Shown here piece after piece: positions 1-6,448 of a stretch of 6,448 nucleotides of DNA. The stretch comes from a virus (Duplodnaviria; Heunggongvirae; Uroviricota; Caudoviricetes): the IMG/VR virus record IMGVR_UViG_2693429637_000008, positions 1 to 6,448 of that record. The stretch is one strand, 5' to 3'. Each line of letters begins with the position of its first letter. Within the stretch, counting starts at the first letter, position 1. The position numbers and the translations under genes are program-made. The notes beneath the pieces are model-generated. The model did not search any database. It was not told the origin of the DNA and saw only the letters and a list, made by a program, of their open reading frames with translations.

Positions 1-50
1 TGTCAACGCCACGATGTTTGACCGTTATTTGCCATTTTCATGCCCGCTAA
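1..50. repeat. IS21-family terminal inverted repeat, istB-distal end (IRR); extent approximate
   Basis: TGTCAACGCCA...GACCGTTATTTGCCATTT pairs imperfectly with the reverse complement of 2081-2130 (TGTCAGCGCCA...GACGGTAATTCGCCATTT). Confidence 0.75.
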
Positions 51-59
51 ATACTTTCG

Positions 60-2029
<1,970 letters not shown>

Positions 2030-2080
2030 GTTGATGTCCTTTCTGGTGTGAGAACCTTAAGGAAACAACATGTTGGGTGG

Positions 2081-2130
2081 AGCGGACAATCCAAATGGCG
2101 AATTACCGTCTTATATCACTGGCGCTGACA
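2081..2130. repeat. IS21-family terminal inverted repeat, istA-proximal end (IRL); extent approximate
   Basis: Ends ...GGCGCTGACA at 2121-2130, the reverse complement of the window start with one mismatch in the first 11 nt. Confidence 0.75.
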
Positions 2131-2361
2131 CTCCCTCCGTTGTTGAGAACGGCGACGGTATGCCAGCAACTCAAGAACTCTGGTTCGTATGTTGCGCATA
2201 TCCACGCCGTTAAGCTCAATACCGTCACGGCGCATTACCTCATCCACCACACGCGCATAATTTTCAGCGGTCACGCTGTCCGGTTGCATGGCCTGTTCGT
2301 CAACCTGCTGGCTGATTCCGGCGACGCGGCGGATTAATCCCAGTATTTCGGCTTCTGTCAT
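2116..2361 (-). pseudogene. Small element gene truncated by the IS21 insertion; possibly a head-completion or head-tail connector-like protein (weak guess)
   Basis: ATG at 2361 preceded by a GGGGG Shine-Dalgarno-like run. Codons 1-77 (2131-2361) are native; the last four codons and the stop (2116-2130) lie inside the IS21 terminus. It sits directly downstream of the capsid gene. Confidence 0.5.
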
Positions 2362-2399
2362 TGTGCCCCCATCGCGCTGGTTAAGAAAACAAGCTCAGA

Positions 2400-2613
2400 T
2401 TTTTTGTAAAGAATCTGTCACGCTAAAAGATGTCGAACAAAAATTAACCACAATCATCATCTTTTTTGCATCAACTACATTAAAAACAACAGGTTACACA
2501 CATGATGATGATGACGATAAAACCACAAAAATGCGCTTTTTTCCGCGCCGACCCGCCCCGTGGACAGGCCCCCCCCACCAGGAGGACCCGCAAAAAAGGC
2601 GGCTGCTGCCGCC
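2400..2613 (-). repeat. Intergenic terminator/regulatory cassette, copy 1 (paralogue of 4918-5130)
   Basis: Shares with copy 2 the blocks TTTTTTGTAAA, TCGAACAAAAA, CGCYTTTTTCCGCG, CCGCCCCGTGGACAGGCC, CCCCCACCAGGAG and a terminal hairpin plus A-run, in the same order and spacing (plus-strand reading). Confidence 0.75.
2592..2613 (-). terminator. Rho-independent terminator downstream of the capsid gene
   Basis: Minus strand reads GGCGGC-AGCA-GCCGCC followed by TTTTTTG, 6 nt after the capsid stop codon at 2620-2622. Confidence 0.7.
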
Positions 2614-2619
2614 TTGTTC

Positions 2620-3378
2620 TCATGAAGAAATCGCTCTGACCATTCCGCGATAATCCAGAGCAGCAACGCCAGCATCAATGCGGACCTTCCAGGCCACACC
2701 GTCAACAATAAAGCCCTCCTGCTGCTCAAGGTAAGGCTCGTCATTACCGTCAAGATAAGCCACCTCAATTGTGTCCGTTCCCTGTGCTGAAAGCATGTAC
2801 CATTGCTTATCACTGACTTCATCAAGGCGGGGATCGACAATAATATCCAGTTGTTTGTGGTACGGGTTATATGAACCACTGTTTGTATCGGCACCGAAAG
2901 GCGTGGTTGAGTTAACCATTTGCAACGCTCTGTCTTCCAGAGCCGCAGGAACAAGAAGGAATTTTGGCACAATATTCAGCACCTCACCGTTTTCATCCCT
3001 CTGTGTGCGCATTGCACGGCGTGCAATGCCAAGCCCTGTAGTGCTGACTCCGTTATCAATATCATTTCCGTGTTTTTTGCTGAACAGCGGTATACCGTCA
3101 GAAAGCTTTGTGTTTCCTGTCAGCACCAGATGAACCAGATTACCCACCGTTCTGGCGGCTGCTCGCCCCATTGCCTGTGGGATAACTGTTAACTGATTCA
3201 GGTCATCGTTAATAATCGCCTGTCGGGTAATGCTGAAAATATTTCCGTAAGTTGCCAGCGCGATTGGTTCGCCACGGTCACTGGTGGTGATGTATTTATA
3301 TTCCGCGCCTTCCGGCACTTTGTTTAATGTAGAGAAGCCATTCAGGCCAACACGACGTGCCTCATGGAAGTTTGACAA
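2620..3378 (-). CDS. Major capsid protein (HK97-like), C-terminal ~250 residues; downstream frame of a split protease-capsid gene
   Basis: The 252-aa ORF has no ATG start (the ORF track begins it at a TTG) and is in the -1 frame relative to 3342-4487. Composition and length fit the body of a phage major capsid protein. It is entered from the upstream frame at the A_AAA_AAG heptamer at 3384-3390. Confidence 0.7.
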   Translation of the reverse strand: MSNFHEARRVGLNGFSTLNKVPEGAEYKYITTSDRGEPIALATYGNIFSITRQAIINDDLNQLTVIPQAMGRAAARTVGNLVHLVLTGNTKLSDGIPLFSKKHGNDIDNGVSTTGLGIARRAMRTQRDENGEVLNIVPKFLLVPAALEDRALQMVNSTTPFGADTNSGSYNPYHKQLDIIVDPRLDEVSDKQWYMLSAQGTDTIEVAYLDGNDEPYLEQQEGFIVDGVAWKVRIDAGVAALDYRGMVRAISS

Positions 3379-4487
3379 TGAACCTTTTTTCGTCCACTGG
3401 CGGAACGTTTCGCCGCTGTGTTCACGGATTTTTCAGCACCACCAGCAAGGATATAAGTAAAATCGCTGCTGCTGTGGGTGAATGCCGCGTTTACTATCTG
3501 CGAGCGTGTGCTGTAGCTGCCTGTGCTTATGCCGCGATGGGTTAATGATGCCTGTGCCATATCGAAAAGGCTCATCATGGCGTAAGGGTTGCCGCGTTCT
3601 GCCTGTTCATGTCCCAGACGCGCATTAAGCCCCTGACGCATTGCATCGCCGGTTATGTTGCCGTTATCCGTGTACGCGTAGTAAAGATTTGCGGGGGTGG
3701 TTTTGTTTGTCGGTGTCGATTCTTTACCCATAGTGAGTAAAAGGCGTTCGCGTGCATCCTCAACGCTACAGCCTGAATCAGCAAGACAACTTATAGCCAG
3801 GTCGTTATATCTTCCATTGAACGTGCCAAACAATTCACGTATCCCGTTGAGTCGTTCCTGTTCTCCGCTGCCAGTTTTCTGGCTGATCATGCTTTTAATA
3901 TTTTCCGGCATATTCGAAAAATCTCCGATTCGTTTTGATTCAATTCTGGCCATTGCTGTAATCGCGGGTATAACCTCATCTGCGAAGCCATTAGCCTTAC
4001 ACTCATTGCCATCCATCCAGGTTTCCGCCTCCATCATGGCGGTGATTTCCTGTTTGCTCCTGCCCGTTCTTCCGGCGTAGGTTTCCGCCATCGTGTCGCC
4101 CAGCTTGTCCATCAGGTCAGCAAAGCGGCGAACGTCGCCCGACACTCCGGCAGTAACACCACGGGGGGCATGTATCATCATCATCGCGTTTTCAGGCATA
4201 ACGATGTGATCGCCACACATGGCAATAAACGAGGCCATAGAAGCCGCCATGCCTTCAATGTGTACAATTTTCTTTGCCGGATGATTTTTCAGGGCGTTAT
4301 AGATAGCCAGCCCTTCAAAGATGTCGCCACCAGGTGAATGGATGCGAAGATGGATTTCAGGCACATTACCGCACGCGTTGATCTCGTCAGTAAGTGCCGA
4401 TGCTTTTACACCGTACCCGCCGATCTCGTCATAAATGCGTACATGTACAACATCAGCCATAGCCTTAATGGAAAACCATGTTTTCAT
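3342..4487 (-). CDS. ClpP/S49-like prohead protease fused to a scaffold-like linker and the N-terminal part of the major capsid protein; upstream frame of the split gene
   Basis: 381-aa ORF with AGGAG 7 nt before the ATG at 4487. The N-terminal ~190 aa have serine-protease-like motifs (IHSPGGDIFEGLAIYNAL, HIEGMAASMASFIAMCGDHIVMPENAMMMIHAP). This frame stops 13 codons after the slippery heptamer. Confidence 0.75.
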   Translation of the reverse strand: MKTWFSIKAMADVVHVRIYDEIGGYGVKASALTDEINACGNVPEIHLRIHSPGGDIFEGLAIYNALKNHPAKKIVHIEGMAASMASFIAMCGDHIVMPENAMMMIHAPRGVTAGVSGDVRRFADLMDKLGDTMAETYAGRTGRSKQEITAMMEAETWMDGNECKANGFADEVIPAITAMARIESKRIGDFSNMPENIKSMISQKTGSGEQERLNGIRELFGTFNGRYNDLAISCLADSGCSVEDARERLLLTMGKESTPTNKTTPANLYYAYTDNGNITGDAMRQGLNARLGHEQAERGNPYAMMSLFDMAQASLTHRGISTGSYSTRSQIVNAAFTHSSSDFTYILAGGAEKSVNTAAKRSASGRKKVHCQTSMRHVVLA

Positions 4488-4711
4488 AGCCAGGCTCCTA
4501 ACGTTGCCCTGTACCAGTATTCAACCGCGCTTCTCGCAATCTGCCCTTTCGTGGGTACTGGCATTCCAGGGTGATGACTTTTAATGAACTGCTGATAGCG
4601 TTCGAGCTTCTCCATAGTTCCGGCGTCTATGTGCACTGTTGCACTTTTATCCGGTTTTCTGCTGTTGTTCTCTGGCATAAGTCTGCCTCCGTTATGATTA
4701 ACGGGCATCAT
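4484..4711 (-). CDS. Small ribbon-helix-helix-like DNA-binding protein (putative regulator); true start probably the ATG at 4678
   Basis: GGAGG (plus-strand CCTCC at 4686-4690) lies 7 nt before the internal ATG at 4678, giving a 64-aa product. Predicted strand-helix-helix pattern (ATVHID / MEKLERYQQFIKS / TKGQIARSAVEYWYR). Its stop overlaps the protease start (ATGA at 4484-4487). Confidence 0.6.
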   Translation of the reverse strand: MMPVNHNGGRLMPENNSRKPDKSATVHIDAGTMEKLERYQQFIKSHHPGMPVPTKGQIARSAVEYWYRATLGAWL

Positions 4712-4859
4712 TATTGATCGATAAAACTGGTAAATAAATCATTTTCTATCTAAAAATCAGATTATGTGTTTTCTGATTTTTGTCATACCAGCAAAAGAAT
4801 TGACTAATTATTGCCACGCCAGCACAATTAAGACTCATCATTTCGGTAGTGGCAGTATC

Positions 4860-4876
4860 CTTTGTCGCTGACAAAG
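4860..4876. promoter_or_regulatory. Perfect 7-bp inverted repeat with 3-bp spacer, CTTTGTC-gct-GACAAAG; candidate operator or hairpin
   Basis: Exact dyad symmetry seen in the sequence, located in the leader upstream of the RHH-capsid operon. Confidence 0.4.
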
Positions 4877-4910
4877 CGCCTCCGGTGGCACCATCGGGGC
4901 GCTTTTTTTT
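4876..4910 (+). terminator. GC stem-loop followed by T8 on the plus strand; terminator-like, possibly bidirectional attenuator
   Basis: GCGCC (4876-4880) pairs with GGCGC (4898-4902), followed by TTTTTTTT (4903-4910). On the minus strand the same stem is followed only by a weak TTTGTC. No plus-strand protein gene ends here. Confidence 0.45.
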
Positions 4911-4917
4911 GCGCCTG

Positions 4918-5130
4918 TTTTTTGTAAATGCTTTCGGGAACGTTCCGGCGTCGAACAAAAAACAACCTAATTCGACACTAAAAATTTTTATTTTGCCATA
5001 TATCAATAACTTAAACTGGTGGTGATGGTGACATAAAAATCAAAAAATACGCCTTTTTCCGCGAACCGCCCGCCCCGTGGACAGGCCACCCCCACCAGGA
5101 GTACCTACAAAAAAGCCGGATTGCTCCGGC
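4918..5130 (-). repeat. Intergenic terminator/regulatory cassette, copy 2 (paralogue of 2400-2613)
   Basis: Same ordered conserved blocks as copy 1. Also contains a match to the IHF-site consensus as I recall it (TATCAATAACTTA, 5001-5013). Confidence 0.75.
5108..5130 (-). terminator. Rho-independent terminator downstream of the SSB-like gene
   Basis: Minus strand reads GCCGGA-GCAA-TCCGGC followed by TTTTTTG, 17 nt after the stop at 5147-5149. The stem differs from the copy-1 terminator by compensatory changes. Confidence 0.7.
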
Positions 5131-5146
5131 TTCTGTCACTCGTTGC

Positions 5147-5569
5147 TTAAAACGGTATGTTATCCCCGTACGGATCATCATTCCCCGCCTGTTGTTTGGC
5201 CCTGTTCAGTGCATCAGTGGCCTGCCCCTGTTGGCCTTTTTTACCGCCCGGTCGCGCCGTTCTGGCACTGATTACACTGTCTGCGATAACCTGCCAGCCC
5301 TGCCGCGTTTCTCCGTTCTGGCCTGTCCACTGGCTTACCTGCATGTTACCCGCCACGCTCACCAGCTCGCCTTTCTGGTGCTTTGCCAGTGCGTCAGCCT
5401 GTCTGCCAAACGCCAGGACGGATAACCATATCGTCGCCGTTCCGTCATCTGCCTGGCTGCACGGCAGGGGAACCGCCATACTCGCCATCGTCATTTGCGT
5501 ACCCTTGCTGGTGGTCTTTAACTGCGGGTCAGCCACCAGCCGCCCGTAAGCCGCTATCTGTGCTGTCAT
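5147..5569 (-). CDS. Short single-stranded-DNA-binding (SSB)-like OB-fold protein with a C-terminal ...DNIPF tail
   Basis: 140-aa ORF with GGAGAG 8 nt upstream. The N-terminal ~100 aa follow the bacterial SSB OB-fold pattern (GRLVADPQLKTT..., WLSVLAFGRQADALAKH, QKGELVSVAG). A Gly/Gln-rich linker leads to a C-terminal ...GNDDPYGDNIPF, resembling the SSB acidic IPF tip. Its ATG overlaps the upstream stop (ATGA at 5566-5569). Confidence 0.7.
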   Translation of the reverse strand: MTAQIAAYGRLVADPQLKTTSKGTQMTMASMAVPLPCSQADDGTATIWLSVLAFGRQADALAKHQKGELVSVAGNMQVSQWTGQNGETRQGWQVIADSVISARTARPGGKKGQQGQATDALNRAKQQAGNDDPYGDNIPF

Positions 5570-5811
5570 GCTGTCTGCTCTCCGGTTTTAACGTTGATGG
5601 TTGTCACCTGTTCCGCTTCGGCAATCTCCCGTTCTGTCAGCGTGGCAAAGTTTGCCGCCGTCGTGGTCATGAATGCGCTTATCAGTTCGGGATGTGCTTT
5701 CGCGTATCCTTCCCCGGCGTTGCGGTCGATGATTTTTATCGCCACCCTCAGCCAGTGTTCTGTCAAATCAAGGGCGTGAGATTGTGGTTTTTTGGCGTGC
5801 TTCGTTGTCAC
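5566..5811 (-). CDS. Hypothetical 81-aa protein, first gene of the SSB operon
   Basis: GTG start at 5811 with GAGG 8 nt upstream; translationally coupled to the SSB-like gene. No recognisable motif. Confidence 0.5.
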   Translation of the reverse strand: MTTKHAKKPQSHALDLTEHWLRVAIKIIDRNAGEGYAKAHPELISAFMTTTAANFATLTEREIAEAEQVTTINVKTGEQTA

Positions 5812-5855
5812 AGGCTTTACCTCACAGCAATAAAATAAAATTTTTGCATTTTAAC

Positions 5856-6086
5856 CCTTCACCTGTTCACCTTTTGCAATTTTCCCTTTTTATTCATGAT
5901 GTTAATGGGTTAACAGTTTCACAAAAACTATTCACCAACTGTTCACCACTGTTCACCCTTAAAGCTCAATAAAGAATCAAAAAGGTGAACAGTGAATAGT
6001 TTGGTGAACAGTTCATAAATAACTGTTCACCCTATAATATACTGATATAAAAGACATTTATTGCAGGGTGAACAGTGGTGAACAGT
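5856..6086. repeat. Iteron array: putative replication origin of P4 alpha-protein type
   Basis: Direct copies of (AC)TGTTCACC at 5864, 5940, 5950 and 6024, with variants CCTTCACC at 5856 and TATTCACC at 5929. Inverted copies GGTGAACA(GT) at 5984, 6003, 6067 and 6077. Interspersed AT-rich tracts and a perfect TATAAT at 6033-6038. Confidence 0.75.
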
Positions 6087-6114
6087 TATTCCATAAGTTT
6101 AATTTTTTCCATCG

Positions 6115-6411
6115 TCATTTGTGACCTATTGCACATGATGGCATCCAGTCTTCTGAATCCTCTGTCAGGGTCACATTTGAACGCAAACCGTGCTTCGTTT
6201 TCCGTTTCATATACTCCCTGCCATATTCCGCCATTGCCCCCGGCATATCTTTACCGAAGCGCGTCAGTGTTACAGGTTTACCGAATCCGTGTGCCCTCAT
6301 ATATGCCAGATAGGCGTGATAAAGATACCTGCGCGGACTGAACGGAATAATTTCGGCATTACCCACTAACAGACCATCACACATTACCGACGACATGAGG
6401 TGTACTGGCAA
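6115..6411 (-). CDS. Hypothetical 98-aa protein upstream of the iterons (possibly replication-associated); start uncertain (TTG at 6411 or ATG at 6396)
   Basis: Open frame with protein-like composition, but no convincing Shine-Dalgarno sequence. An in-frame TAG lies at 6421-6423, and other minus-strand frames are open right to the window edge. Confidence 0.35.
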   Translation of the reverse strand: MPVHLMSSVMCDGLLVGNAEIIPFSPRRYLYHAYLAYMRAHGFGKPVTLTRFGKDMPGAMAEYGREYMKRKTKHGLRSNVTLTEDSEDWMPSCAIGHK

Positions 6412-6448
6412 TAGCGGACACTACCATTTGTTCTTTTTTTAAGCAGCC

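Follow-up and report, generated by a model that had tools for sequence, protein, structure and literature searches.

Most phage-inducible chromosomal islands (PICIs) of Gram-negative bacteria carry a capsid gene that is neither needed for transfer nor the cause of the known interference (PMC6092414, PMC10111431), and PICI late zones have been described as bearing capsid genes taken from the helper (PMC10111431). In EcCICFT073, which bears both cos1 and cos2 (PMC6092414, PMC6739421), a hypothetical open reading frame (ORF) of 68 amino acids (aa; WP_000796960.1) lies directly upstream of c1499 and overlaps it as TAATG. A second comparison is with the omega repressor of pSM19035 and CopG of pMV158, small ribbon-helix-helix (RHH) autoregulators encoded by the first gene of their operons. 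Here we describe a small gene that occupies the same late-zone position as the EcCICFT073 ORF and is coupled to a capsid gene, in a stretch of 6,448 nucleotides (nt), hereafter the window (positions 1 to 6,448 of the IMG/VR virus record IMGVR_UViG_2693429637_000008). The window carries the late zone of a satellite that, like EcCICFT073, is a Gram-negative cos-type PICI, a kind of element already known, and the conserved small gene sits at the unexplained PICI capsid genes. The small ORF is not mentioned in the PICI papers PMC6092414, PMC6739421 and PMC10111431, and a literature text search for ribbon-helix-helix with PICI or satellite returned nothing relevant.

A conserved small gene coupled to the satellite capsid gene

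The small gene and the capsid gene form a two-gene unit on the minus strand. The features of this unit and of the DNA preceding it are as follows, including a dyad picked out by an earlier note on the window made from its sequence alone.

4484-4678, minus strand: small gene of 64 aa (MPENNSRKPDKSATVHIDAGTMEKLERYQQFIKSHHPGMPVPTKGQIARSAVEYWYRATLGAWL), predicted to be RHH-like, with an extended segment at residues ~12-18 and helices at 19-35 and 44-60
4679-4711, minus strand: 5' extension of the 75-aa ORF, non-conserved and absent or different in orthologues
4710-4738, minus strand: predicted sigma-70 promoter of the small-ORF/capsid operon (-35 TTTATT at 4733-4738, -10 AATAAT at 4710-4715)
4752-4781, minus strand: 10-bp inverted repeat AAAAATCAGA-N10-TCTGATTTTT, just upstream of the -35 and within an ATCA/TGAT-rich block
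4860-4876: dyad CTTTGTC-GCT-GACAAAG, adjoining plus-strand terminator-like hairpins at 4880-4916
2620-4487, minus strand: ClpP-like prohead protease/major capsid protein (MCP) fusion gene (NF045540; Pfam CLP_protease and Phage_capsid_4)

Counted from its first ATG, the minus-strand ORF at 4484-4711 encodes 75 aa. Comparison of orthologues indicates that translation truly begins with the internal ATG at 4678, giving 64 aa: the orthologues start at this codon and do not keep the upstream extension. The strong Shine-Dalgarno (SD) sequence that the earlier note placed before an internal ATG is confirmed as GGAGG at 4686-4690, 7 nt 5' of the ATG at 4678-4676, and this internal start is conserved. 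The Prokaryotic Genome Annotation Pipeline (PGAP) annotates 64 aa in one strain, and the two upstream ATGs of the 75-aa ORF fall within or directly after the predicted -10 hexamer; the segment 4679-4711 is most likely 5' untranslated region (5'UTR). A local hairpin is predicted in the 5'UTR at 4691-4704 (fold -12.4 kcal/mol, z -3.3 in the window); sequestration of the SD by this hairpin was rejected as a general feature, the hairpin being present in the E. coli and Citrobacter forms and not in Klebsiella. At the other end of the gene the stop codon TGA (4486-4484) overlaps the ATG of the next gene (4487-4485) as ATGA, as the earlier note had observed at 4484-4487; the overlap is kept in the loci read at DNA level, and AGGAG (4495-4499) lies within the last codons of the small ORF, 7 nt before the ATG of the capsid fusion. 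The gene is unannotated or mis-annotated, pipelines currently overlooking the small ORF or calling a 43-aa fragment.

The small protein matches phrog_4934, a family of unknown function, end to end, and has no match in Pfam, NCBIfam or the sequences of the PDB. The family is tiny and confined to Enterobacteriaceae: a profile search (hmmsearch, 1.84 billion representatives) returned only four close clusters, some fragments and a single distant protein of 64 aa, from which a second subfamily with ~35% identity was recognized in Citrobacter, Phytobacter, Salmonella and Leclercia. Long repetitive matches to the profile (P0014-P0018) were set aside, as they appear to be low-complexity. The ORF is present in 160 of 5426 complete E. 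coli genomes, where it adjoins the fusion gene among the matches listed, and is found also in Kluyvera, Trabulsiella, Rahnella, Klebsiella, Citrobacter, Phytobacter, Salmonella and Leclercia. Values of dN/dS (nonsynonymous to synonymous substitution rates) are 0.04-0.15 wherever dS is not saturated, which points to strong purifying selection, and 12 residues are invariant across the two subfamilies (H16, I17, T21, Y28, P37, P40, P42, Q46, I47, R49, V52 and W55). Conservation across the satellites of several genera, on which the earlier proposal depended, is thus found, and these comparisons mark the small ORF as a genuine, conserved, uncharacterized gene.

In every locus examined for gene context (eight or more genera, among them those of E. 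coli, Kluyvera, Trabulsiella, Rahnella, Klebsiella, Citrobacter and Phytobacter) the small ORF lies directly 5' of a satellite-borne ClpP/MCP fusion gene, and the unit comes after primase, ssb or perC and a terminator. The arrangement had seemed unusual when the window was read on its own, but a small ORF before the capsid gene is the rule in this satellite class, and the ORF of EcCICFT073 is analogous. Fusion-type capsid genes occur in about 800 E. coli genomes and the small ORF in ~160, essentially those with the satellite-type allele, and the phage copies therefore lack it; a tblastn search of 50,697 phage records with the small ORF gave no match. We also considered that the ORF is a 3' remnant of a captured helper portal gene, and rejected this (BLASTP against the portal of phage 1720a-02, E 1.7; no tblastn match in the phage records). 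With no phage copy and no portal ancestry, the small ORF belongs to the satellite and not to the captured capsid gene.

The downstream gene had been taken for a capsid protease. The protease domain is there, but the gene encodes a fusion of ClpP-like protease and major capsid protein and not a bare protease. The copy in the window is a pseudogene: judged against the intact fusion of 629 aa in E. coli RM10410, it has a 13-nt deletion (~3423/3424) that splits it into ORFs 3342-4487 and 2620-3378 and puts the capsid domain out of frame. The satellite fusion protein is 52% identical to that of the lambdoid phage 1720a-02. The 629-aa satellite form (locus L001, 9489-11378) is without ~35 linker/scaffold residues of the 659-aa 1720a-02 homologue (locus L012, 2210-4189), a loss that may be relevant to capsid size or assembly.

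Promoter, fold and a possible autoregulator

The predicted promoter at 4710-4738 has a 17-nt spacer that holds a conserved GATC, and transcription is predicted to start near 4703. Its -35 is weak, and a consensus promoter scan did not report it. Ten loci spanning both protein subfamilies have this layout, TTTAYY-17-(A/T)ATNAT with the GATC as anchor, and share a common order of terminator T-run, ~40-nt AT-rich block with short repeats, TTTAYYTAYC, 17-nt spacer and (A/T)ATNAT. The terminator precedes the promoter in the loci with upstream sequence read, and the operon therefore needs its own control. The promoter and its flanks are more conserved across genera than the N-terminus of the small protein, and the region has no counterpart in phage genomes. 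We note that the GATC (4716-4719), a single Dam site just upstream of the predicted -10, is kept in all ten promoters compared, and could make the promoter methylation- or replication-sensitive.

Short repeats surround this promoter. Together the ten 110-nt promoters contain 59 copies of ATCA/TGAT, a 2.6-fold excess over dinucleotide shuffles (22.7 +/- 4.2, maximum 34), although the ten promoters are related to one another and are not ten independent tests. This core is the only general repeat among the promoters compared, and in most loci one inverted ATCA/TGAT pair brackets the -10. The repeat block at 4752-4781 is a candidate protein-binding array, to judge from its sequence; its exact repeat differs between lineages. 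ATCTG/TCTGA repeats, enriched in some promoters, were rejected as an operator core since they are absent in Kluyvera, Klebsiella and Rahnella. The dyad at 4860-4876, to which the earlier note had tentatively assigned an operator function, is perfect only in the window; five other E. coli elements have a degenerate form of it and more distant elements lack it, and it lies ~125 nt upstream of the conserved promoter; on this pattern of conservation it is unlikely to be an operator.

A separate feature of the leader is a plus-strand promoter-like sequence, TTGACT-17-CACAAT (4800-4828), which points away from the capsid operon and is followed by the dyad and two terminator-like hairpins. The plus strand of 4800-4916 could thus specify a short (~80-nt) divergent RNA, at about 4835-4915. 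Its -35 and spacing are kept in RM10410, in which the dyad is not, and the region has no Rfam match; Rfam found no family anywhere in the leader, the sole matches being spurious microRNA families on the iterons described below.

The small protein is basic with a K/R-rich N-terminal arm, and its sequence pattern is compatible with an RHH protein: the basic arm is followed by an alternating V-H-I-D, an amphipathic helix and Q-I-x-R-x-x-V-x-x-W. An AlphaFold2 monomer model from a shallow family alignment (predicted local distance difference test score 66 overall, 76-81 in the core) has an extended N-terminus and helices at 19-35 and 44-60, matching at model level the strand-helix-helix topology of the RHH superfamily (~45 residues). 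A Foldseek search of the PDB with this model returned nothing significant, the best TM-scores being those of two RHH centromere-binding proteins. When the EcCICFT073 analogue was modelled in a comparable way its Foldseek list was mixed, not mainly of RHH folds, so that the RHH enrichment does not arise from just any strand-plus-hairpin model. The RHH-like topology is moderately supported by these predictions. Before helix B, where the RHH superfamily has a short turn with a G-x-S/T/N motif capping the helix, subfamily 1 has T43-K-G-Q and subfamily 2 has G-V/I/T-x-Q.

A plausible scenario, which we favour tentatively and with a little less than even confidence, is that the small protein is an RHH-type regulator, the product of the first gene of the late operon, that acts on its own repeat-rich promoter. 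Beyond the terminator that follows ssb, the sigma-70 promoter with its weak -35 would drive a two-gene operon in which gene 1 encodes the 64-residue basic protein and the ATGA-coupled gene 2 encodes a protease-scaffold-capsid polyprotein. An RHH-type dimer would bind the ATCA/TGAT-rich repeats around its promoter, including the pair that brackets the -10, and so control, through negative feedback, how much capsid polyprotein is made and when, as with CopG/repB and omega. Output of the polyprotein would in that case scale with the copy number of the induced satellite, and translational coupling would tie its synthesis to that of the small protein. By analogy with these systems the mode would probably be autorepression; dimerization, DNA binding, the identity of the operator and the sign of the regulation are what we infer. 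The likeness to omega and CopG is one of size and operon position, and the small protein differs from them in having no detectable sequence homology, a longer inter-helix loop and a satellite capsid polyprotein as its partner.

Several observations weigh against this scenario. Searches of Pfam (E up to 10, seven members) and NCBIfam gave no RHH family match, and phmmer and hmmsearch against the PDB found no RHH chain; the RHH-like character proposed in the earlier note therefore holds for the predicted strand-helix-helix model and not for the sequence profile, which does not place the protein in the superfamily. The inter-helix loop, HPGMPVPT (8 residues), exceeds the classical RHH length. The repeat array upstream of the -35 varies by lineage while the putative DNA-reading strand VHIDA is invariant, and it is equally possible that AlpA or a helper factor binds the repeats. 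Finally, the c1498-c1501 module of EcCICFT073 can be replaced by cargo with transfer kept (PMC10530653, PMC10460865). To judge from the gene numbers, the 68-aa ORF should lie within this module, and as the module is dispensable any role is accessory under laboratory conditions.

The 68-aa ORF looks like a positional analogue of the small ORF. Both proteins have an N-terminal KK, a V-x-V/I-x-I strand-like segment and a two-helix pattern, but the capsid gene of EcCICFT073 is lambda-E-like, unlike the ClpP/MCP fusion downstream of the small ORF. An hhalign comparison of the small-ORF family with the EcCICFT073 ORF was not significant (E 0.02, probability 2%), albeit in the same register, and we do not claim homology. 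Upstream of the EcCICFT073 ORF (locus L013, 463-669) lie a TATAAT box and an inverted repeat, perfect over 15 bp (AATCATAACTGGATG/CATCCAGTTATGATT).

RHH proteins are also found as antitoxins (TacA, CopA_SO, VapB, Rv0298), and a type II toxin-antitoxin pair does not describe this locus: the downstream gene is the ClpP/MCP fusion, so that the partner is a structural polyprotein and not a toxin, and the small protein ends 4 residues after helix B, its core taking up nearly the whole 64 aa with no C-terminal toxin-binding extension.

Alternative roles for the small protein

The small protein may instead be a partner of the satellite or helper protease-capsid polyprotein and not a DNA binder at all, the main rival to the autoregulator but one that we consider unlikely. 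It could act as an alternative scaffold, determine capsid size, chaperone assembly or inhibit the fused protease, and would be made in a fixed ratio through the coupling. CpmB of the Staphylococcus aureus pathogenicity island SaPI1, a small helical dimer that remodels capsids, is a precedent for such a role. The strictness with which the ORF stays physically and translationally linked to the fusion gene in two divergent subfamilies, the lack of an RHH signal in the sequence and the missing ~35 scaffold/linker residues of the satellite fusion all agree with it, and the proline-rich loop MPVPTKGQ is a possible binding motif, of which a wider alignment keeps only P40, P42 and Q46 invariant. However, a partner of this kind leaves aside the basic character and K/R-rich arm of the protein, the conserved repeat-rich promoter that adjoins the ORF, and the DNA-binding proteins that are its fold neighbours. 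In EcCICFT073 the capsid gene that follows the analogue is an unrelated one of lambda E type, and this fits a promoter-linked role better than one tied to a single capsid.

An RHH binder could also act in trans on the helper, by repressing its late or head genes or by binding near cos. Satellites do encode small factors that act on capsid assembly or on capsid gene transcription, CpmB being one of the former and CapR of the PICI-like element PLE, as cited in PMC10111431, one of the latter; CapR represses helper capsid genes, and Rpp redirects packaging (PMC6739421). CapR is derived from a Bro/nuclease protein and CpmB is an all-helical scaffold, and no sequence or fold relation links either to the small protein. 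The RHH-like model, the cos copy directly upstream of the ORF in the E. coli lineage and the lack of an Rpp-sized gene in the late zone are consistent with action in trans. Against it, the promoter region has no phage counterpart, cos lies downstream of the capsid gene and away from the small ORF in Klebsiella and Kluyvera, and the protein has no similarity to TerS, Rpp or Nu1. In a screen of EcCICFT073 genes only c1503 (rppA) blocked lambda (PMC6739421), and the analogue was presumably included. We regard action in trans as improbable.

A role as a small terminase or packaging-specificity protein, offered in the earlier note as an alternative, finds no support. Rpp and lambda Nu1 (TerS) resemble the small ORF product as small late-zone satellite proteins encoded near cos (PMC6739421), but Rpp has 144-153 aa with a winged helix-turn-helix (HTH) and a coiled coil, whereas the small protein has 64 aa and is tied to the capsid gene and not to cos, with which it does not move in Klebsiella and Kluyvera. 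Taking a winged HTH, 140-180 aa and a position next to cos as the marks of this class, the small protein gave no Phage_Nu1, DUF1441 or HTH match in searches in which RppA of CFT073 gave weak HTH/Nu1 matches and a Kluyvera mini-ORF matched DUF1441. Kluyvera and Klebsiella have a single cos-like site after the capsid gene followed by an ORF of 54-85 aa (L004, 7382-7639; L008, 9321-9485), which matches only the N-terminal winged-HTH part of DUF1441/Nu1 and could be a miniature Rpp or TerS DNA-binding domain.

That the ORF is a translated leader only, delivering ribosomes to the capsid start with its last codons carrying the capsid SD and its peptide without function, is highly improbable: the ATGA overlap, the AGGAG in the last codons and the conservation of the C-terminal LGAWL in one subfamily only would suit a leader, but strong purifying selection runs along the whole core, and the twelve residues invariant between subfamilies of 35% identity lie outside the SD-encoding tail.

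The satellite and the meaning of its small gene

The remaining features of the window are those of the satellite and of an insertion sequence (IS) within it.

6115 to window end, minus strand: C-terminus of a P4-alpha/D5-type primase
~5860-6100: dense field of GGTGAACAG iterons, direct and inverted, downstream of the primase gene
5566-5811, minus strand: 81-aa ORF
5147-5569, minus strand: ssb
4950-5132, minus strand: terminator after ssb, then cos-like copy 1 with core CCACGGGGCGGG, a direct repeat of a ~160-nt conserved block
2432-2615, minus strand: terminator after the capsid gene, then cos-like copy 2, the second copy of the conserved block
2116-2361, minus strand: last satellite gene, now an 81-aa ORF (phrog_1561) whose last codons are supplied by the IS
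1-2131: complete IS21 (istA/istB), with 100% identical copies elsewhere

Minus-strand gene order in the window is thus primase, iterons, 81-aa ORF, ssb, cos1-like copy, small ORF, fusion gene, cos2-like copy and the ORF at 2116-2361. The two cos-like copies flank the capsid module, with 71% identity over 129 nt and similarity extending further, and both align with DNA directly upstream of terS in the lambdoid phages 1720a-02, CP-1639 and mEp460. We take the repeated block to be a cos region because its phage match falls where cos lies, just upstream of terS; the two copies correspond to the cos1/cos2 pair of EcCICFT073. The GGTGAACAG iteron field is presumably the satellite origin of replication.

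The nearest complete relative is that of E. coli RM10410 (91% identity), an island of ~10 kb between mppA and pgrR that encodes an integrase, an HTH/AlpA-like gene, BRO-N, an Icd-like protein, DUF4222, primase, ssb, the fusion gene and a final 93-aa ORF. A PICI is defined here by integrase and AlpA, primase and origin, a helper-like cos, a late zone with a captured capsid gene, unidirectional organization and a size of 10-20 kb. Within the window the primase C-terminus, iterons, ssb, two cos-like copies and capsid gene match the Gram-negative cos-type PICIs, and the full layout is visible in the RM10410, Klebsiella and Phytobacter relatives, in agreement with PMC6092414 and PMC10111431. The satellite in the window is decaying, through the 13-nt frameshift in the capsid gene and the IS21 insertion, with the small ORF intact. 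The IS21 sits in the 3' end of the last satellite gene, the counterpart of which has 93 aa in RM10410 and EcCICFT073.

We note that some Klebsiella relatives are inserted inside the ClpP/MCP fusion gene of the helper prophage itself (L009-L011, 1-189 and 10673-12340), and that these PICIs also bring their own copy of the fusion gene together with the small ORF. Helper-embedded PICIs have been described (PMC10111431).

A small gene welded translationally to the capsid gene, with its own conserved promoter, offers a handle on when and why a satellite makes capsid protein. If its product is an RHH autoregulator, it would be a compact and portable control element for engineered PICIs. A broader and unlikely proposition is that a satellite-only regulator or partner is a fixed companion of captured PICI capsid genes, existing in two or three unrelated-looking versions that include the one in EcCICFT073. 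If so, the companion protein may be the missing key to the role of PICI capsid genes, whose polyprotein might, for example, be made only in helper late growth, to poison or remodel helper procapsids.
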